A stretch of 64,000 nucleotides of DNA from Escherichia coli (lineage in GTDB: Bacteria > Pseudomonadota > Gammaproteobacteria > Enterobacterales > Enterobacteriaceae), in assembly GCF_024700885.2 (NCBI RefSeq), contig NZ_CP117016.1; one strand, given 5' to 3'. Each line of letters opens with the position of its first letter. The stretch's first letter is position 1. This document shows positions 19,040 through 42,051 of this stretch, in pieces. The notes beneath the pieces are model-generated. The model was not told where the DNA came from. It made no database searches and saw nothing but the letters and a program-made list of their open reading frames with translations. Position numbers and translations under genes: made by a program.

Positions 19040-22000
19040 TTGGAAGTAGAAATGTGGGATGGTGGCTTACAAGAACAGGAAGTATTGGCTATCGAGAAAA
19101 TAAAAGCTGCTTTTTCAGTCAACGTATCTAAGCCTGACAAGCCTTTCCGTAGCGGTTCAATTAGTGAGCAGCTAAAAAGCTATGGTTTTATCGGCAATGA
19201 AATGTTCCCTTGGAAAGGTTATGCAGGTTTTCGATTTGTTGAGGCAAAAAAAGAGGGGGAATTCGATTTAGTTATTGTAACACACTGCAACGTGATCATT
19301 GTTGAACTGAAAGACTGGAACCATCAGCCTGTAACCGCACGCGGAGATACTTGGTTTAAAGGTGATAAGAACATGGGGCGCTCGCCAGTAAGCGTGACTC
19401 GTAGCAAAAAATTCATGCTGGACAAAAAACTCAAGCGTCTGGTAGACCGTTTTACGAACAAAGGCTATATCCCGATTGTTCATTTTTTTGTTGTGATGAC
19501 CGGCAATGCAGATTTCAGCGCGCTGCCGGAGGAACAACGGCGCCATACGATCTCGTTAAAAGATTTCCTGAAGTTTGCCGATCGCGGGAGCTTCAATAAC
19601 TATTTCAAACCGCACCCAGCTACCAAGGTTCTTAACAAGGATTTCCATCTTTTCGATGATTTGTTCCTAGGGCCTCAGACGGCACCAAAAGCCTTGAGAG
19701 TTAATGGCTATGAAGCTAATGATATGATTTTCGAACATCCTAAAAAGGTGTATCGAGAATATCTGGCAAAATCTGAGATATCAACGAACAGCGAAGCGCT
19801 ACTCAGAGTATGGAATTTTAGAAATATAACGGGAACGAAAGCGAATACCCCGGAAGGACGAGCTCAGATTGTTTCACGTGAGCGCGAAGTGTTACAGCAC
19901 ATCAATCACCAGAATCGTGACCTGTATAACCACTGTCTCAGGTCTTTGACGAGTTTTCAGAAAGACGAGGTGACGGCCGAGTATAGCGAAGTCTACGAAG
20001 TTCCGCCGGGTCATGTCCGGTTTAATGAGTTTATCGGAAAATATGGTAAGAACTTTTCTGATATGGACCGCTTGAATGTGGTGAAACTGCTCATTGCAAA
20101 GTTTAGTGATCTCCATGAGATGAAAATTGCGCACAGGGATGTCGCCGATCACAGTCTGTGGATTTCACCTTCAAAAGAAGTTGCTCTTTCGAACTTTATT
20201 TCGGCTTACCACCAGCCAGCCGGAACGGTTGGCGATTACCGTAAGCTTTTATCCGTAGGTGCAGTCCACGTAAAAGACATGCTTGATAAGGGCGAGCTTA
20301 CGCCTTTTCAGCAAGATGTTCATACTCTGGGCCTTGTCGCCTGGCACTTATTTAGCGGTATGCGCATGTCGCCAAAGAGTCTGGAGAAAGTACAGGACAA
20401 CATGCTAAACAGCCAGCACTGGTATTCATCTGTATTACGGGATGCCGTTGCCGCAAAATTCACTTCTGCAACAGAATTCTTTGATGCCCTGAAACAAGCC
20501 GAACCTGCTGGCAAGGATATTCCAACATTTGATGATACTGAGCTTGACCCTTACCGACATGCTATCAATCACGCTCGTCAATACCCGGAAGACGATGGCT
20601 TTCAGTTTCAGGTCGAAACAGTCGACAAAGAAGTCTATATCTCGAAAGGAAGGCTCGTGAAGGCTTGGCTGAATGTTGGGGGACAGGGATACGATCCGTC
20701 AATTAATTTCCAGGTTCTGAAGTTTTTAAAGCAGGTTGAGCGGCTTTCTTCAGTTAAAACAACGTATCTACCTCAAATTCGTGAATTCGGTATCGCATCA
20801 AAATCATCAAGCCTATATATGGTCACGGATCAGGTACAGGGAGAAACCTGGGATAAAATAGCGGTCCCCGATGATGAAAAAATCGACCTCATTGGTAAGT
20901 TTGTCGCCGCCGTTGAGCACTTACATGGTCTGGGTGTTTCTCACGGGGACATCCACCCTGGCAATGTGATATTTGAGACACAGAGCCGTTTGCTTTTTCT
21001 CATCGATATCCCCGATTTTTCACCGTCCGGTGACGAACCTAAAAATCACAGTTACAGCCCTGAATACATTGATAATTGTACTTCTTTTGAACGTGACAAC
21101 TATGCAGTGATGAAGATGTCCTGCGAGTTGCTAGGCATGTCATGGGGGCTGGAATCAGACATTTATCCGACAATCGCGAATGCTATCCGAGCAGAGCTGG
21201 AAGATCCGGTTTTTGGGTTTAAGGATTTAGGCCGCTTTAAAAAAGCGATAGATAGTAATGACCTGGTGCCAGAACAAGACCTGATAGAGATTACTGCAGG
21301 AAATGCCGATGAAATAATCTCTATTCTGCCTGATAACGGGCATCTGTATGTCAAAGTTAAGTCAAATCCTAAAGCGCCAGCTGAAGTAAATGTGACTTTC
21401 TCTGGGATTGGTGGCAGTTTTACTGCGGTGTTCAACAAAGATCAGAAGACGCTGGTTCATGGCTTCAGGCCACGGGCTCGCGTCACAATTCGTAAGCAAG
21501 ATATTGATGAAAGCCAGTTCGAAATTGATACTGGTATCAAGATTATTCCCGGCAGTCCGCAGGATCTGTCGGCGTTGACAGTATTGCTTAATGAAGAAGA
21601 ATCTTTTGCGCGGGCAATCGAGTTGATTGCCGCAACTGAAGATGTTCAGGTACAAGAGCCACTTACGCTTCAGCTAAAAGATACCTTTGCAAGGCTTGAT
21701 AAGCAGACGCTTGAACCTTCTTTAAGAGAAGTGCTGGAAATCCCAACAGTGAAACTGTGGCGCGCCATTCTGGATACTGAAACAGAATCTTATCCAAACA
21801 TTGAAATCAGCGGTGAAGTGGTCCCGGTTGCAGATGCTCATGGAGAGCTTCTTCTCCCTTACTCTGCTGATGTTGATCCACTCGGTGCTTTCAGAAGTAG
21901 TGATGAAGTCGAAGCCTTACAGGTCGATCAGGAAGGTGTTGAGCGATTTATTGGTGAAGTGTCACTTAAGAAGTCAGAGCTCAAAGAGATTCGTCTTGTC

Positions 22001-33422: not shown

Positions 33423-34533
33423 GCTTTCCTGCAGGTCTGCACCGGTTTAACAAACAAAACTTAACAGAGTCTGAAGGAGTAGTATTCCGTGCAAATAACC
33501 GAAGCGTTACTTTCAGAGCCGGGAGATATCTGGCGTTTTGTTCAGCAGGCGGTGGACCACTGGCCGCGTCTGCTGGCAGTCCACTTCACGCGTCATTCGA
33601 CCAGAGTAAATATTGATGATTACTAGATTCGTGTATTTTATCAGGCATTTTACTTGCGAATAAATCCCCTTGCTATCCAGCGAAACCACACAGGTAGCTA
33701 TTACCATATGTGGTAATACACTAGTTACAGGAAAAATATGCAAGTTCCGCAATACGTTGTGTGTTGCTCCTTAGCCAGGATCTTTTCTTCCATGCGAGAT
33801 ATGACAACAATTTTGAGGAAGGATGTTCGTAACTGGTAGAGTTACTACAACAAGCATGGGAGGCTCTGACTCTGACAGACATTGTACTGTGGAATGTTGT
33901 TACAGGTTGGGGCGGCAACCGTGCCAGGAGACCATGAGCCGTTCACGGCATTAAAGGCCACACTTCAGTCGTTTACATTCCCTATGGTGGCAGGCATCTT
34001 CCATTAAGGCGTCAGAGCGTTACCAACGTTATGTTGTCATGGCTCATCTTTCATAGTCGATGCTTATCTGGTGGCTGAAACTAGCCGCAGATAAAGAGTG
34101 TGAAGTTGATACCATGGAGTGGAGTGACGTGCAGGCAGGAGATTCGCTCTATGCAGGGTTGTGAGATGAATTCAAACCGGCTGGCAGCGCCAGTGATATT
34201 CGAAGATTCGTCCGGTTGTTACCCAGTATGCATTAAAAACCCAGACATTATGGACAATATAACGGCTTCTACAACAAGGAAGTGCCTGTTTACCATCCGG
34301 GTGTAATGACTCACCTTTGTGGGCTTTTGCCCGTCGCGCTCTTAACGTTGAAGACATTCTCTGCCTGCCGATTCAGGACTGCGACAAAAGCCATATCTGG
34401 CTACTGGTCAAGGATGACCAGCGTCTGGAGTAGGTGATAAGCCAAATAGATAAGCTGGAATATGTGGTGAAAGTGCAACGTAATCAGTCCAATCCGACGA
34501 TGTTTAACAAGATTGTGGTGTTTTTTCAGTAAG

Positions 34534-35319
34534 TCATTCGTCTTCTGAATCAGGTGTAATGATCTTTACAGAACCATTCCGGCAGTGCGTAACATAATCT
34601 GCCGGTAACGGACGATCGCTAATCAGAACGTCAAATGCAGAGATCGGTGCGAGGCTGGCAGAGGCCACTTCATCGAACAACGCGTGGCGGGCGAGCAAAA
34701 TTTTCCGTAGTCCACGGTTCATCGCTTTACGCTTAGTGGCAAGATCTTCAGGGTTAAACCAGCTGACGCCAAAGTGATTATGCACACCGCTGGCGGAAAT
34801 AAATATTTTTCGCGGATTGAGAGAGTCTAATGGCGAAGAGTTACTGGCATCGTAAAAAGCATCACTTCTGGCACGATACGTACCACCACAAAGTATTGCT
34901 GTTACATTAGGCTTTTCATTCAACGCAACAAAGACGCGATGTGAGTAACAGATACCGGTGAAGGTGATTGCATCCGGGATCATGCTTATAACGAGTGGTA
35001 TCTCCTGACCATTATCAAAGAAGATCAGATCATTTTCATTAACCATTCCGGCAGCCAGAATTGCAATAGGTAAGTCATCACGATGATTTTTTGGAACGTC
35101 ATGGATTACTGGCATGGATGGCGCGGGTTTATTCACCATTACAATATAGCCACCCAGTAGGGTCAGTGGCAGAGGTTCATCTTCCTGATGGAGATCGCGA
35201 CGAATAGTCATTACAGAAACTTCCAGCATTCGCGCTGCGTCTTTCAAATGGATTCTGTCGGTTTTCTTAAGCAGTTCCATCAAACGTCGGATACGCTCTT
35301 TTTGCTTCGTTTCCATCAA
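34534..35319 (-). CDS. deoQ: DeoR-family regulator of the deoxyribose operon (DeoQ-like)
   Basis: 261 aa; N-terminal HTH (IRRLMELLKKTDRIHLKDAARMLEVSVMTIRRDL) and sugar-binding domain; divergent from the deoK operon. Confidence 0.7.
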   Translation of the reverse strand: MMETKQKERIRRLMELLKKTDRIHLKDAARMLEVSVMTIRRDLHQEDEPLPLTLLGGYIVMVNKPAPSMPVIHDVPKNHRDDLPIAILAAGMVNENDLIFFDNGQEIPLVISMIPDAITFTGICYSHRVFVALNEKPNVTAILCGGTYRARSDAFYDASNSSPLDSLNPRKIFISASGVHNHFGVSWFNPEDLATKRKAMNRGLRKILLARHALFDEVASASLAPISAFDVLISDRPLPADYVTHCRNGSVKIITPDSEDE

Positions 35320-35621
35320 CTCTCTCTCCGTAAGAATGTTATAAAAATAACATTTTGGCGTTAGTAAACATTGTTTTCATTACCATACTATACGACCGCC
35401 CCTTTGAAATGAAAAGGGTATAGGCTGCTGAGTTTTCGGTATTAATCCTGTTAGGTTGCTTATGATTAGATCGTGTTGGCCTGAGTGATGAGACTGGAAG
35501 TCTATTAAATAAACATCGGGTTGATGTGCTAATCGCGATCTCAGTCACAAATGATGCAAAAGTAACATGCTAATGTTATTTAAATACCATTGTTATGCGA
35601 AAGTTTATAAGAGGTAGTGAA

Positions 35622-36542
35622 ATGGACATTGCAGTTATTGGTTCCAATATGGTGGATCTCATTACTTACACTAATCAGATGCCTAAAGAAGGAGAAACTC
35701 TGGAAGCACCTGCCTTCAAAATCGGATGTGGTGGGAAAGGTGCTAATCAAGCGGTGGCGGCGGCTAAATTGAATTCAAAAGTCCTGATGCTGACTAAAGT
35801 AGGTGATGATATTTTTGCGGATAATACTATTCGTAATCTCGAATCATGGGGAATTAATACCACTTATGTTGAGAAGGTCCCCTGTACCAGCAGTGGTGTT
35901 GCACCGATCTTTGTTAATGCCAACTCGAGCAATAGTATATTAATAATTAAGGGAGCGAATAAATTTCTTTCCCCGGAAGATATCGATCGAGCTGCAGAAG
36001 ATCTGAAAAAATGCAAATTGATCGTTTTACAACTGGAAGTTCAACTGGAAACAGTTTACCACGCGATTGAGTTTGGTAAGAAAAATGGTATTGAAGTGTT
36101 ATTAAATCCGGCTCCGGCATTGCGTGAGTTAGATATGTCTTATGCCTGCAAATGTGATTTCTTTATCCCGAATGAAACAGAACTGGAAATATTAACCGGT
36201 ATGTCGGTTGATACTTATGATCATATTCGTTTGGCCGCACGTTCGTTAGTTGATAAAGGGCTGAACAATATTATTGTTACCATGAGCGAAAAAGGCGCAT
36301 TATGGATGACCCGCGATCAGGAAGTCCATGTTCCTGCATTCAAAGTAAATGCTGTTGATACTAGTGGCGCTGGTGACGCATTTATTGGTTGCTTTTCCCA
36401 TTATTATGTTCAAAGCGGTGATGTTGAAGCCGCTTTGAAAAAAGCCGCTCTCTTTGCCGCTTTCAGCGTCACAGGGAAAGGTACGCAATCATCTTATCCG
36501 AGTATTGAACAATTTAATGAATTTTTAACCTTAAACGAATAA
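35622..36542 (+). CDS. deoK: Deoxyribokinase DeoK (PfkB/ribokinase family)
   Basis: MDIAVIGSNMVDLITY..GGKGANQAVAAAKL.. and C-terminal DTSGAGDAF motif; matches DeoK of Salmonella and pathogenic E. coli as recalled. Confidence 0.85.
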   Translation: MDIAVIGSNMVDLITYTNQMPKEGETLEAPAFKIGCGGKGANQAVAAAKLNSKVLMLTKVGDDIFADNTIRNLESWGINTTYVEKVPCTSSGVAPIFVNANSSNSILIIKGANKFLSPEDIDRAAEDLKKCKLIVLQLEVQLETVYHAIEFGKKNGIEVLLNPAPALRELDMSYACKCDFFIPNETELEILTGMSVDTYDHIRLAARSLVDKGLNNIIVTMSEKGALWMTRDQEVHVPAFKVNAVDTSGAGDAFIGCFSHYYVQSGDVEAALKKAALFAAFSVTGKGTQSSYPSIEQFNEFLTLNE

Positions 36543-36569
36543 TCATCCTGCACAGTTAAAGGTAGCACT

Positions 36570-37886
36570 ATGAACGATAAAAACATCATTCAGATGCCTG
36601 ATGGGTATCTGAATAAGACTCCCTTGTTCCAGTTTATTTTGTTATCGTGTTTATTCCCGCTATGGGGATGCGCAGCTGCATTAAATGACATATTAATCAC
36701 TCAATTCAAAAGTGTATTTTCGCTAAGTAACTTTGCTTCAGCATTGGTGCAGAGCGCATTTTATGGAGGTTATTTTTTAATTGCAATACCAGCATCCCTT
36801 GTGATTAAAAAGACCAGTTATAAGGTGGCAATTTTAATTGGCCTGACGCTGTATATTGGTGGTTGTACACTTTTTTTCCCTGCCTCGCATATGGCAACCT
36901 ACACTATGTTCCTTGCAGCTATTTTTGCGATTGCGATTGGCCTGAGTTTCCTTGAAACTGCAGCGAACACATACAGTTCAATGATCGGTCCAAAAGCCTA
37001 TGCCACATTGCGGCTCAATATCAGCCAGACCTTTTATCCGATTGGTGCTGCGTCTGGTATTTTATTGGGCAAATATCTGGTTTTCTCCGAGGGGGAAAGC
37101 CTTGAGAAGCAGATGTCCGGAATGAACGCCGAGCAAATTCACAACTTTAAGGTGCTGATGTTAGAGAACACCCTTGAACCGTATAAGTATATGATTATGA
37201 TTCTTGTTGTGGTCATGGTGTTGTTCCTTTTAACCCGCTTCCCAACCTGTAAAGTGGCACAGACAAGTCACCATAAATGCCCGTCAGCAATGGATACGCT
37301 GCGCTATCTGGCTAAAAATTCGCGCTTTCGTCGTGGTATTGTGGCTCAATTCCTTTATGTGGGTATGCAGGTCGCAGTATGGTCATTTACCATCCGTCTG
37401 GCACTGGAGTTGGGCGATATCAACGAACGTGATGCTTCAAACTTCATGGTCTACAGCTTTGCCTGCTTCTTTATTGGCAAGTTTATAGCCAACATCCTTA
37501 TGACACGTTTTAATCCGGAAAAAGTCCTAATTCTCTATTCCGTTATAGGGGCGCTGTTTCTGGCATATGTTGCACTGGCTCCAAGTTTCAGCGCGGTCTA
37601 TGTCGCCGTCCTGGTAAGTGTTTTGTTTGGCCCTTGCTGGGCGACGATCTATGCAGGAACACTGGATACAGTTGATAACCAACATACAGAAATGGCAGGA
37701 GCAGTCATTGTTATGGCTATTGTTGGCGCAGCGGTGGTTCCGGCAATTCAGGGGTATATTGCAGATATGTTCCACTCACTACAGCTTTCATTCCTGGTTT
37801 CTATGCTCTGTTTTGTCTATGTCGGTGTCTACTTCTGGCGTGAAAGCAAAGTACGTAATGCACTGGCTGAAGTCACAGAGTCCTGA
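36570..37886 (+). CDS. deoP: Deoxyribose permease DeoP (FucP-like MFS transporter)
   Basis: 438 aa, about 12 predicted TM segments, directly downstream of deoK. Confidence 0.8.
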   Translation: MNDKNIIQMPDGYLNKTPLFQFILLSCLFPLWGCAAALNDILITQFKSVFSLSNFASALVQSAFYGGYFLIAIPASLVIKKTSYKVAILIGLTLYIGGCTLFFPASHMATYTMFLAAIFAIAIGLSFLETAANTYSSMIGPKAYATLRLNISQTFYPIGAASGILLGKYLVFSEGESLEKQMSGMNAEQIHNFKVLMLENTLEPYKYMIMILVVVMVLFLLTRFPTCKVAQTSHHKCPSAMDTLRYLAKNSRFRRGIVAQFLYVGMQVAVWSFTIRLALELGDINERDASNFMVYSFACFFIGKFIANILMTRFNPEKVLILYSVIGALFLAYVALAPSFSAVYVAVLVSVLFGPCWATIYAGTLDTVDNQHTEMAGAVIVMAIVGAAVVPAIQGYIADMFHSLQLSFLVSMLCFVYVGVYFWRESKVRNALAEVTES

Positions 37887-37897
37887 GGAGAATCGTT

Positions 37898-38911
37898 ATG
37901 AGTACGCGTATTTATTTGTGGCGGGCGCTTTTTGGCGAAAAACCTCGTATCTTGCTGGAAAATAGTGATTTTACTGTCACGTCTTTTCGCTATGACAGTG
38001 GTGTCGAGGGGCTTAAAATTGCAAACAGTCGTGGACATTTAATTATTCTTCCCTGGATGGGGCAGATGATTTGGGATGCGCAATTTGATGGACACAGTCT
38101 CACCATGTGCAATATGTTTCGCCAGCCTAAACCGGCGACAGAGGTGATAGAGACCTATGGCTGTTTTGCCTTTCATTCAGGTTTGCTGGCTAATGGCTGC
38201 CCATCTGCGGAAGATACTCATCTGCTACACGGTGAAATGGCCTGTGCCGCGATGGATGAAGCATGGATGGAATTAGAGGGAGATATGTTACGCCTTACCG
38301 GGCGTTACGAGTATGTAATGGGGTTCGGGCATCATTATCTGGCTCAGCCAACAGTGGTCCTTCACAAATCCTCTACATTGTTCGATATTAAGATGGCCGT
38401 AACCAATCTGGCTTCTGTAGATATGCCACTACAATATATGTGCCACATGAATTATGCATATATACCAAATGCTACGTTCAGCCAGAATATACCGGACGAA
38501 ATATTAAGGTTGCGTGAATCAGTACCTTCGCATGTTAATCCCACCGCCCAGTGGCTGGCGTTTAATCAACGAATTATGCAGGGAGAAGCCTCTCTGTCGA
38601 CGCTGAATCAACCGGAATTTTATGATCCAGAAATAGTCTTCTTTGCAGACAAACTGGACGCTTACACAGATCAGCCAGAGTTTCGCATGATCGCTCCCGA
38701 TGGCACTACGTTTGTTACTCGTTTCTCCAGTGCTGAACTAAATTATGTGACACGCTGGATCCTTTATAACGGCGAGCAACAGGTAGCCGCCTTTGCATTA
38801 CCAGCAACCTGTCGACCTGAGGGGTATCTTGCCGCGCAACGTAATGGCACGCTGATTCAGGTTGCACCGCAGCAAACGCGCACTTTTACAGTCACCACAG
38901 GTATTGAATAA
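37898..38911 (+). CDS. deoX: DeoX/DeoM-like putative deoxyribose mutarotase
   Basis: 337-aa ORF terminating the deoK-deoP operon; position and size match deoX. Confidence 0.7.
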   Translation: MSTRIYLWRALFGEKPRILLENSDFTVTSFRYDSGVEGLKIANSRGHLIILPWMGQMIWDAQFDGHSLTMCNMFRQPKPATEVIETYGCFAFHSGLLANGCPSAEDTHLLHGEMACAAMDEAWMELEGDMLRLTGRYEYVMGFGHHYLAQPTVVLHKSSTLFDIKMAVTNLASVDMPLQYMCHMNYAYIPNATFSQNIPDEILRLRESVPSHVNPTAQWLAFNQRIMQGEASLSTLNQPEFYDPEIVFFADKLDAYTDQPEFRMIAPDGTTFVTRFSSAELNYVTRWILYNGEQQVAAFALPATCRPEGYLAAQRNGTLIQVAPQQTRTFTVTTGIE

Positions 38912-39682
38912 CCACATTTACGCGCTTATCGCTAAGGTAAGCGCCATTCTGCCTGCAGAAATCTACCTGCCGAAGTGATGCTTCAGTGGTAAGCGGCTCA
39001 CCAAAACCGTATTGATATTTACTGAGAGGCCAGCTCAACTATTTAGAGCAACAGATCGTGTACCCGGTTTGCCGGCCAGTCCTAGATATGCTCAATGACA
39101 TAACGCATCCATTTTTCTGGCTCCACATCGTTCAGACGGCATGTGCACAATACCAAAACGGCAAGCGTTTGAGGCGAAGCACATATATACAGGACAGCTT
39201 TATCGTCATTGCATTACCGAAACGGCTTTCATCGCTGCAAGGTTTTTCTTTGCCGGAATGTATCCGGTCAGCTTATAACCTGCTGATAACCTGCGCCCTT
39301 AAACATGCGGGCTGCAGCCTGTTGAGCCTGCCTGAAATGAGCTAGGATTAGGTGAAACACCTATCCATCTTGGTGTACTGTACATATGAAGCATGTGCCT
39401 TGATGCAGCTTGTAGCGATTTGTATGCAACCGATGACATTAATCCGTAAGACATGGGAAAAGATAGCAACTGAGATCCTAAGTTTGAATGTTATCACGCC
39501 TGCGTTTGAGAAACTTCGTTGGAAAAGTAACCTCGGTAAACCCCCGTGCCCTGAGCTCATTCCGGAGATGCTGTCATAGTGACCGTCTTGCTATTGGTGG
39601 GAATTGGAGACTGAATGTTTTGACAAGACAGTCCGGGAAATTCTGGGTGTAATCATATAAGACAGGTGATATTGCGTTCTCC

Positions 39683-39753
39683 AACCCTTTAGCTCAGTGG
39701 TAAGAGGACTCATAATCGCTTGGTCGCTGGTTCAAATCCAGTAAGGGCCACCA
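39683..39753 (+). pseudogene. Degenerate tRNA-Ile2/Met-like sequence (CAU anticodon loop), probably a pseudo-tRNA
   Basis: aaccctttagctcagtggtaagagg-actcataatcgcttggtcgctggttcaaatccagtaagggccacca aligns with E. coli ileX/ileY (GGCCCCTTAGCTCAGTGGTTAGAGCAGGCGACTCATAATCGCTTGGTCGCTGGTTCAAGTCCAGCAGGGGCCACCA) but has acceptor-stem mismatches and lacks about 5 nt of the anticodon stem. Confidence 0.6.
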
Positions 39754-40351
39754 TCACACACTGCCACTGGCCCATTGCGCCATGCCCGGCACATATCAGT
39801 CACAGAGCCTTTCGGGGATAATTTGCAGAGTGGTCTGGCTGACTTTCTCTGTAGGCAGATCGTTCCCGCTTGATAGCTCATCCCCCAAAGAAACGTCACG
39901 ATATTTGGTATTTTCAAAATTCAAAAAGAAAACCCGCAGAGTGGCAACAGAGATTAAAAAGTTTGAGAAACGCGATCTGGCACAGGCGGTGATTGGTGTT
40001 GGAGTGATGGTAGATTTTATCAGCCGGATAATGTCGGTTCTGGCTGATAGCTGGGGTTGTTGGTGTGGTCTTCCTATTGATGAAAAAACAAGCAATTACT
40101 TGGCATATTATCTGTAACACTTTAAAACTGTTAAGAAGATCACAATTCATTATGTTTATTATTGTCTGGCCGGAGGGATATTTGTTAAAAAGTGCGCCGT
40201 GTGGTGAATCCCCCTGTGCGGTGGGGCGACTGGTGTACATAGCATTTATTATGTTATGAGCGAAGCCTACGCGGGTTCAGTGACACCGACTGAATTCACC
40301 GGGAGGCACCCGGCACCATGCAACAGACGCAAGTTAGGCTAAGCCTTATAC

Positions 40352-40379
40352 CCCTGTAAGTTTTTTACAGGGTTTTTTT
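40352..40379 (+). terminator. Rho-independent terminator-like hairpin
   Basis: ccctgtaa-gtttt-ttacaggg followed by ttttttt. Confidence 0.6.
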
Positions 40380-40448
40380 GTGCACAGAAAACCCCCAGCT
40401 AGGCTGGGGGGGCCGGAAAGCTTTCAGCTTTGAGCCAGTTATTAAAAC

Positions 40449-40607
40449 TCTGAACCGGTTCCTGGCACGAATATCATTCCCGGCCTGCGCTTTGATTATC
40501 TCAGCGACTCCGGCGGGAACTTCAGCCGCAGTCTGAATCTTTCGCAGGAATTGGGCGATTATTTCAAAGTCAAAGCAGGGGTTGCCCGAACCTTTAAAGC
40601 CCCAAAC
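40449..40607 (+). pseudogene. iroN: iroN internal fragment upstream of the IS150 insertion
   Basis: Translation ..EPVPGTNIIPGLRFDYLSDSGGNFSRSLNLSQELGDYFKVKAGVARTFKAPN matches the middle of the salmochelin receptor IroN; no iroN 5' sequence precedes it. Confidence 0.8.
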
Positions 40608-42051
40608 TGTACTGACCCCAAAAAGTTGGACAGTTAAACACGAGGCATATAGGTCTGATTCCGATATTCAATTGGAGTCAGACCTTTTAATTTCAGGCTA
40701 ATTCTTCTGCTGTTGTAGTATTCAATATATTCCGTAACAGCATCCTTCAGTTCGCTTATATTACTGAACTCATCAAGATAAAAACACTCCGACTTTAAGG
40801 TTCCAAAGAAACACTCCACCACAGCATTATCCAGACAATTGCCTTTTCTGGACATGCTTTGTTTAATACCATGTTCTTTAAGGATATTTTGATATCTTCT
40901 CATACGATACTGCCATCCCTGGTCAGAGTGCAGAACAGGATGCTCGTGAGGATTAAGCATTTTTGAATGCCTGATCGAGCATATTCTCAACCATGTTCAT
41001 CACTGGTCTTTCCGAAAGGCTGTAAGAAATAACATCATTGTTGAAGAGATCTATTACTGGAGACAAATACAGCTTGCGCCCATTGACTGCAAATTCAGTA
41101 ACATCGGTAACCCACTTCTCGTTTGGCCGCGTAGCCTTGAAATCTCTTTGGAGAACATTGGGGGCGGTTTGCCCTACCTCTCCTCTGTAAGAGCGGTATC
41201 GCTTGACCTTAATCGCTGCCTTAAGTGAGAGGGTTCCCATCAGGCGCTGAACAGCTTTATGGTTAATCTGTTTCCCTTCTCGATGAAGAGACAGCGTTAC
41301 CCTACGGTATCCGTATCGGCCTCTATTCTCATGATAAATCTCACCAATACGCTTTTTAACGTCCGCATACTTGTCAGGCTTGCTGAGAGCCTTTAGATGG
41401 TAATAAAACGTACTGCGCGGTATCTCCGCAGCCCTGAGAAGCTCATCAAGAGGATAAAACTGCCTTAGCTCGTTGAGTACTTTCACTTTTTCGTGGAATG
41501 AGCTAAGGCTTTCAGCTTTTTTAGATACACAAGCCGCGTTTCAAGAAATCGAACTTGCCTTTCAAGATCCTCAATGCGTCGGTCTTTTGACAGCTCCAAT
41601 GCTGATGCCGCTTTTTCTGGATCAACTGATATTGCAATGTTTCTTTTGGTGCCAATCTTGAGCGCGCGTAAACCAGCTTCTCCGCGCTCTTCATAAACCT
41701 TCAGCCACCTGGCTACAGAACCACTACCAGCAAGCATAAAGTGAGCAGCAGCCTGATTAAGGGACATGTGCTGCTCGATCACAGCTTTCACGACCTTAAT
41801 ACGCAACTCTGGATCAGCACTAACACCTTTAGGTTTGGGAATTAAACCTTTTTCTCCATGTTTTTCATAGAGGGCAACCCATGTCCTGACCTGGATTCGG
41901 GGGGCACCAAAACGTGCCGAGATGATCCTGTAACCATCATCAGTAGTGAAGTAGTGATTCACGACTTCAAGGCGCTTTTCAAAAGGGTATTTTGGCTTTG
42001 ACATATCAGGGGCTATTCCATTTCATCGTCCAACAAAATGGGTGCAGTACA
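40608..42051 (-). mobile_element. IS150 (IS3 family) with frameshifted insK, inserted in iroN
   Basis: 1444 bp; ends tgtactgacccc.. and ..gggtgcagtaca; flanked by 3-bp target duplication AAC (40605-40607, 42052-42054). InsJ 41483..42004 (MSKPKYPFEKRLEVVNHYFTTDDGYRIISARFG..); InsK split into 40953..41486 and 40634..40990. Confidence 0.9.

Follow-up and report, generated by a model that had tools for sequence, protein, structure and literature searches.

We examined the deoQKPX gene cluster at positions 34534-38911 of a 64,000-nucleotide stretch of Escherichia coli DNA (contig NZ_CP117016.1 of assembly GCF_024700885.2), the whole of which is called the window here. With a probability that we put at about 0.9, the known 2-deoxy-D-ribose regulon is present here as an intact copy, carried as a ∼5-kb cassette inside a mosaic genomic island. 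The operon, with which some E. coli strains, though not K-12, can live on deoxyribose set free from DNA, has been described before and nothing about deoQKPX as such is new; deoxyribose use is, however, a documented fitness trait in gut colonisation by pathogenic E. coli, so that gene annotation and metabolic models stand to gain from its recognition. The added value is modest and lies in gene remnants that appear to point to an Escherichia source, in the capture of the cassette in a single event, and in a neighbour of enteroaggregative type in a strain that is not typed as enteroaggregative E. coli (EAEC).

Identity of the four genes

The span given in an earlier reading of the sequence (the original prediction) coincides exactly with the outer limits of four intact open reading frames (ORFs) in the ORF list. 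That reading had described a DeoR-type regulator divergent from a kinase, a FucP-like permease and a mutarotase-like gene, and their order and orientation are indeed those of deoQKPX, with deoQ on the minus strand and deoK-deoP-deoX on the plus strand (35622-38911) in the four-gene arrangement of the regulon. The same four genes, in the same order and orientation, are found in the Salmonella enterica locus used for comparison, which runs tisB-ivbL-ilvB-ilvN-deoQ<->deoK-deoP-deoX-uhpABCT, and amino acid identity to this locus is 96.1% for DeoK, 95.7% for DeoP, 84.2% for DeoQ and 83.7% for DeoX. The original prediction had named low identity to DeoK-family proteins as evidence against it; at 96, 96 and 84% in round figures for DeoK, DeoP and DeoX, the identities are high. 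A scan across species with one genome per species, from which the best 80 loci were returned, found the complete divergent arrangement in 67 of these 80 other-species loci, in taxa including Citrobacter, Raoultella, Leclercia, Trabulsiella, Edwardsiella, Providencia and Pasteurellaceae. Only deoQ and deoK are present at the Proteus and Providencia stuartii loci, and the Bacillus methanolicus locus has the order P-X-K.

The literature already describes the operon in several E. coli strains. DeoK sequences are known from E. coli AL862, 55989, CFT073 and EC185 (PMC6452873), the operon is recorded in E. coli NCTC 86 (PMC5382810), and it lies on a pheV island of Shiga toxin-producing E. coli (STEC) that are negative for the locus of enterocyte effacement (PMC6455142). 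The classical deoxyribose pathway consists of DeoK and the aldolase DeoC (PMC6365646).

The start of deoK is at 35595 in the mechanical ORF list and at 35622 in the NCBI Prokaryotic Genome Annotation Pipeline (PGAP) annotation and in all orthologues, after a conserved AGAGG. DeoK is 96% identical to its Salmonella orthologues over all 306 residues, and a protein from S. enterica subsp. salamae that is 96% identical to it bears the name Deoxyribokinase. The 90%-identity clusters of DeoK and DeoP include Salmonella and Citrobacter proteins, some of the kinase members again being named "Deoxyribokinase", and four unrelated E. coli strains have DeoK annotated under one and the same protein accession (WP_000350265.1). 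Aligned to the E. coli ribokinase RbsK (1gqt; E = 7.7e-49), DeoK retains GGKGANQ, the sugar-binding motif, and the catalytic Asp of the GAGD motif (D252), with Met-10 in place of RbsK Asn-14 and Tyr-16 in place of RbsK Asn-20. An N20Y substitution in RbsK arose in K-12 during adaptation to deoxyribose and allows growth on this sugar (PMC6452873); given the alignment of Asn-20 with Tyr-16, the K-12 mutation recreates the residue found in DeoK. Met-10 was considered as a marker of deoxyribose specificity and rejected, as the best-matching ribokinase structures (6wjz, 5byc and 2fv7) also have Met at this position.

The names given by PGAP suggest a different function. Here deoK is rbsK (ribokinase), deoP is fucP (L-fucose:H+ symporter), and the remaining two genes are assigned to the aldose 1-epimerase and DeoR families, so named as though the cluster were a second ribokinase with an L-fucose permease, serving ribose or fucose use and having no special link to deoxyribose. 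Both proteins do exceed the curated cut-offs of the corresponding NCBIfam models (369 bits, E = 1.7e-110 for DeoK with the ribokinase model; 322 bits, E = 6.6e-96 for DeoP with TIGR00885 fucP, alongside a Pfam MFS_1 match), and Salmonella DeoK supports growth on ribose, which it also phosphorylates (PMC13432705). We nevertheless regard such a role as extremely unlikely, given that DeoK and DeoP are 96% orthologues of Salmonella genes in the same arrangement, where deoK (STM3793) is needed for growth on deoxyribose (PMC13432705), and that E. coli strains bearing the cluster grow on 2-deoxy-D-ribose, as documented for Nissle 1917, whereas K-12 has neither the genes nor the growth (PMC7924626). 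The rbsK and fucP names arise because both proteins pass these cut-offs and no deoxyribose-specific NCBIfam model, of deoxyribokinase or of permease, was returned for either; such methods cannot tell deoK and deoP from rbsK and fucP, and the same annotation problem has been noted for Klebsiella models (PMC10926698). Under these names the deoxyribose function is invisible in standard annotation, and this systematic mis-naming affects ∼1,600 complete E. coli genomes.

DeoX matches Pfam DUF4432 (E = 3.4e-16) and is equal in length to Salmonella DeoX. Neither a single-sequence search nor a 28-sequence profile search found relatives of DeoX in the PDB. An AlphaFold model of the protein (pLDDT 82, pTM 0.84) gave as its best Foldseek match 3ty1, a putative aldose 1-epimerase (E = 6.8e-15, TM 0.74), followed by GalM-type mutarotases, and the earlier description of the gene as mutarotase-like thus stands at the level of the fold, a galactose-mutarotase-like β-sandwich. 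The 3ty1 protein (KPN_04629) shares this fold with DeoX at ∼12% identity, and the role of both is putative. Three residues of DeoX are invariant, His-111, His-183 and Glu-308, which we take to resemble motifs of GalM, whose catalytic set is His/His/Glu. A literature search on the function of DeoX returned only unrelated uses of the word. By analogy with RbsD, DeoX may assist DeoK by providing the sugar in the ring or anomeric form that the kinase takes.

Control region and proposed function

DeoQ carries the Pfam HTH_DeoR and DeoRC domains (for its start, the ORF list also gives a TTG one codon upstream), and its score with the NCBIfam DeoR model, 229 bits (E = 4.8e-68), falls just under the cut-off of 244 bits, which marks it as a paralogue of DeoR, not DeoR itself. 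The region of 305 bp between deoQ and deoK was aligned across ten genera and searched for repeats. Its centre cannot be aligned, whereas the blocks around the centre are invariant: two palindromes, a -10 box reading towards deoQ and a CRP-like site, all of which are kept between the window and Salmonella, where the region measures 324 bp. From their sequence, these blocks can be assigned to DeoQ and to CRP as putative sites. For Salmonella, Christensen et al. in 2003 reportedly found binding of DeoQ to tandem operators within an intergenic region of 324 bp, co-repression of the operon by DeoR (of deoCABD), catabolite repression of deoKPX, and optimal growth only with deoP and deoX; the length of 324 bp agrees with the spacing that we measured in a Salmonella locus.

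These features suggest the following scheme. DeoP, as a proton symporter of the FucP family, would import deoxyribose; DeoX would probably speed the interconversion of rings or anomers toward the form taken by the kinase; DeoK would phosphorylate C5 to give deoxyribose-5-phosphate; and the aldolase DeoC, encoded in the core genome outside the window, would split this product into glyceraldehyde-3-phosphate and acetaldehyde. DeoQ is expected to repress deoKPX and its own gene from the palindromic operators until deoxyribose is present, and the CRP-like site would put deoKPX under catabolite control. The ribose operon of E. coli, rbsDACBK-R, offers a parallel in its PfkB-family kinase acting on C5 of a pentose and in its control by a repressor and sensitivity to catabolites. 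The RbsD pyranase there helps to interconvert ring forms, as proposed here for DeoX, although the RbsD fold is unrelated, and the two systems further differ in uptake (an ATP-binding cassette transporter in rbs, a major facilitator superfamily (MFS) symporter in deo) and in the type of regulator (LacI in rbs, DeoR in deo).

Several observations weigh against this assignment or parts of it. With the ribokinase and fucP cut-offs both passed and Salmonella DeoK able to phosphorylate ribose, sequence alone is no proof of substrate preference. Identity between DeoX and the mutarotases is only 10-15%, leaving the fold as the one link between them, and the most conserved loop of DeoX (residues 92-114) is modelled with low confidence. 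The DeoR operator consensus has no match within 3 mismatches in 35317-35621. Downstream of deoX, the T-run that follows the hairpin in other genomes (alignment of E. coli JML285, Salmonella and Citrobacter) is lost here.

This last change, together with the 13-bp deletion after the deoX stop codon, the loss of the uhpA remnant in this variant, and the pseudogenes and insertion sequence (IS) elements around the cluster (UxaA, aldolase, iroN/E/C and IS150), might indicate that the genes are silent or crippled in this strain and merely carried along in a decaying island. That outcome is very unlikely in our view: none of the four reading frames is disrupted, many unrelated strains carry copies of them that are 100% identical, the control region retains all of its conserved blocks, the ribosome-binding sites are in place, and the changes are confined to DNA downstream of the coding region. 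We infer that the regulon is expressed in this strain.

Distribution and origin of the cassette

The 4.6-kb deo region was matched in 1,644 of 5,426 complete E. coli genomes (∼30%), which agrees with its description as an accessory operon; in 1,593 genomes the match extends over at least 80% of the length. Only one of the 1,725 deo places in E. coli genomes is not chromosomal. The copies form two identity classes, of which one, with 845 records, reaches at least 99% and the other, with 792, lies at 95-99%. River water, spinach, cats and dogs have yielded isolates with copies that are 100% identical, showing that the operon is not confined to pathogens, and it is also present in commensal or probiotic strains (PMC5382810, PMC7924626). 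The association with pathogens that had been proposed is one recorded in the literature.

Homology of the DNA to other genera is limited to 34292-38944, from a decayed remnant of the ilvN 3' end to a hairpin after deoX. The ilvN remnant, 242 bases long, is 5'-truncated and has a 1-base deletion and a CAG to TAG stop when aligned to Salmonella and Citrobacter ilvN. The hairpin folds as RNA with -17.4 kcal/mol (z = -3.1) and is retained alongside the 13-bp deletion that distinguishes this variant; the sequence diverges beyond it. The operon of Salmonella and Citrobacter is flanked by ilvBN and uhpABC, and what is a core-chromosome locus in Salmonella is here an island cassette with a decayed ilvN stub. 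In E. coli genomes that are negative for deo, K-12 included, ilvN and uhpA are adjacent, ∼75 bp apart, and constitute the empty site; this and the failure of K-12 to grow on 2-deoxy-D-ribose (PMC7924626) uphold the stated absence of the operon from K-12.

A commoner E. coli variant, found in strains JML285 and A4, retains in addition the spacer between deoX and uhpA, along with ∼63 bp from the start of uhpA. The right junction of the variant in the window is a minority type (281 genomes), whereas the left junction with its ilvN stub is common to 1,553 of the ∼1,593 deo-positive genomes (∼97%). The unit common to both variants is 33848-38944, at 96.9% identity. A single capture accounts for almost all of the copies in E. 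coli, and the ∼3% divergence between variants that share the left junction indicates that the cassette is old. The flanking regions are said to have been used already by Bernier-Febreau in 2004 to infer the origin of the operon, and the ilvN and uhpA stubs had probably been noticed before.

The stubs differ in their likeness to possible sources. For the ilvN remnant, identity is 91.7% to the native E. coli gene, 78% to that of Salmonella and 75-83% to those of other genera; for the spacer with the uhpA remnant, as preserved in E. coli JML285, it is 87% to the native E. coli sequence and 79-81% to that of Salmonella. With their greater likeness to native E. coli genes than to those of other genera, the stubs argue for a source in the Escherichia lineage and not for import from Salmonella. 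We read the cassette, on these sequence comparisons, as a probable single and old capture from an Escherichia-lineage ilvN-uhpA locus. Going further, we lean, if only slightly, toward the view that it is a relic of Escherichia's own ilvN-deoQKPX-uhpA locus, which would have been deleted natively (the site is empty in K-12 and most strains) and would survive only as the ∼5-kb cassette (33848-38944), captured once with its ilvN and uhpA stubs into an island and then shuffled between islands. Two points weigh against an Escherichia-lineage source: the small size of the remnants, and the possibility that their likeness to the native genes is due to gene conversion.

The other origin to be considered is recent horizontal import from S. 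enterica into E. coli, and a passage in PMC5382810 that cites Bernier-Febreau 2004 has the region as thought to be derived from that species. Import would account for a cassette with remnants of both ilvN and uhpA, the genes between which the operon lies in the core chromosome of Salmonella. It is improbable, however, when the levels of divergence are compared. At the DNA level the E. coli deo genes are 75-84% identical to those of Salmonella and Citrobacter, and for Salmonella alone the figure of 75-82% is no closer than that of the native genes ilvB, ilvN, uhpA and uhpB, which are 81-87% identical to the Salmonella and Citrobacter genomes (81-84% for Salmonella alone). Citrobacter is as close as Salmonella or closer, both remnants are nearer to native E. 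coli than to Salmonella, and there are two E. coli variants ∼3% apart with one left junction. No closer donor was found among ∼5.8 billion proteins, none of which falls between the 98-99% of E. coli and 84-85%. A database relative at 85% was tried as the donor and rejected, being no closer to the window than Salmonella is, and the best 80 species loci contained no Escherichia other than E. coli.

Island context and neighbouring features

The window begins in the core genes putP, efeUOB and phoH, followed by an integrase gene (10294-11496) and then the mosaic island. Before the deo cassette, the island holds an AAA protein and unnamed genes, an "enterotoxin" gene, malX/malY-like genes, agaR, and UxaA and aldolase pseudogenes; after it come IS150, iroN/E/D/C remnants, an IS630 fragment and a low-GC block. 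ARAGORN called no tRNA genes in the 64-kb window, and the island abuts phoH and the integrase gene, an arrangement unlike that of AL862 at pheV/pheU. That strain shares the accessory operon with CFT073, 55989, Nissle and NCTC 86 as with the window, all of the same species, and is compared here through its published description. Its pathogenicity island does combine deoK with afa-8 (PMC7545054), in line with the original prediction, at a tRNA-Phe site, in contrast to the putP-efeUOB-phoH and integrase setting found here. In strains A4 and JML285 the deo cassette stands beside a phosphotransferase system (PTS)/LacI cluster, the vpe operon of the literature (PMC6455142); the neighbour is vpe in those strains, afa-8 in AL862 and a module of the aggregative adherence fimbria (AAF) type in the window.

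This neighbour had been predicted as an Afa/Dr-type operon about 8 kb away. The distance (38911 to 46923, 8.0 kb) and the superfamily are right, but the operon is of the AAF type and not afa-8. Its minor subunit matches AggB best (1e-41), ahead of AafB, HdaB and AfaD/DraD (AfaD 4e-35), and its major subunit matches only the AAF pilins AggA (1e-6) and AafA, weakly, with no Dr-adhesin Pfam match. By these matches the operon belongs to the wider Afa/Dr-AAF superfamily and is not afa-8, in a comparison that AfaE-VIII itself lies outside. The complete stretch from the fimbrial genes to an AraC-family regulator (46923-63338; Table 1), which is chromosomal and low in GC (about 28-30%), has the sequence features of an enteroaggregative-type module. 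The full fimbrial operon occurs in 52 of the 5,426 complete E. coli genomes, as against ∼1,593 with deo, which indicates that the 8-kb proximity reflects island mosaicism, not a conserved afa-deo linkage. The co-occurrence of the two, once held to fit the pattern of AL862, does not do so: the neighbour is of the AAF type and is separated from deo by IS150, iro remnants and the IS630 fragment, and it is the island that adjoins phoH. E. coli MLI114, from stool in Mali, matched at 100% in the two window regions searched, and in the paper describing it this strain is not typed as EAEC (PMC10198576).

Table 1. Positions of the features discussed, numbered from the first nucleotide of the window
Feature	Position	Strand	Description
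deoQ	34534..35316	minus	DeoR-family repressor, 260 aa; Pfam HTH_DeoR and DeoRC
deoK	35622..36542	plus	deoxyribokinase (PfkB/ribokinase family), 306 aa
deoP	36570..37886	plus	FucP-family MFS proton symporter, 438 aa; putative deoxyribose permease
deoX	37898..38911	plus	337-aa DUF4432 protein, galactose-mutarotase-like fold (Pfam, predicted structure)
Divergent control region	35317..35621		305 bp; ten-genus alignment, repeat search
Palindrome ATGTT-N8-AACAT	35336-35353		candidate DeoQ operator; invariant in ten-genus alignment
CTATAC	35388-35393		reads as TATAGT, putative -10 for deoQ on minus strand; invariant in ten-genus alignment
TTTTCA-17-TATAGT	35415-35387	minus	promoter-like
CRP-like CGCGATCTCAGTCACA	35534-35549		putative CRP site; invariant in ten-genus alignment
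Palindrome TAACATGCTAATGTTA	35563-35578		candidate DeoQ operator; invariant in ten-genus alignment
AGAGG	35610-35614		ribosome-binding site upstream of deoK; conserved in ten-genus alignment
ilvN 3' remnant	34292..34533	plus	acetolactate synthase small subunit, decayed; PGAP pseudogene, homology
Hairpin GCGCTTA-N9-TAAGCGC	38922..38944	plus	after deoX; terminator stem of ancestral deoX-uhpA spacer; conserved
Fimbrial operon	46923-51391		FGL-type chaperone closest to SafB, usher, AfaD-family minor subunit, major subunit
Dispersin-cluster ORF	51917-52264		same 90% cluster as dispersin Aap
aatPABCD-like genes	54203-59135		including Lnt-like acyltransferase, cluster member named aatD
AraC-family regulator	62541-63338

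Further features were seen in and around the fimbrial module. The major subunit gene (50876-51391) is called "hypothetical protein" in every source, and its product has no Pfam or NCBIfam match; it may be an undescribed variant of the AAF pilin family. In the low-GC block, group II intron domain matches at 59235-59314 and 60751-60830, on opposite strands, flank an ORF with a maturase domain and an IS481 transposase gene.

Between the deo cassette and the fimbrial operon lies a decayed salmochelin (iro) cluster (41992-46396) with a truncated iroN, a frameshifted iroE, an intact iroD and a frameshifted and truncated iroC, bracketed by IS150 and the IS630 fragment. Closer to deo, a degenerate tRNA-Ile-like sequence at 39683-39750 scores 30.7 bits with Rfam (threshold 29) and is ∼88-90% identical to E. 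coli tRNA-Ile genes, with no call by ARAGORN; it lies ∼770 bp beyond deoX and could be what is left of the attachment site of an island. A match to the small RNA (sRNA) family STnc100 (Rfam, 136 bits) is found at 40169-40383, between the cassette and IS150.

On the other side of the cassette, the minus-strand region 25923-30620 encodes a 629-residue "enterotoxin" (no Pfam or NCBIfam match) directly upstream of MalY/PatB-like and MalX-like PTS genes, a trio also present in STEC strain 2013C-4538. At 19040-25443, a 1,656-residue AAA-domain protein and an overlapping 478-residue hypothetical protein are encoded beside a pseudogenised primase fragment of a "TOTE conflict system", and this region may be the remnant of a defence system. 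In the core genes at the start of the window, the Yersinia antisense sRNA family Ysr251 has a full-length Rfam match (193 bits) at 8403-8596 on the minus strand, where it overlaps the 3' end of phoH.

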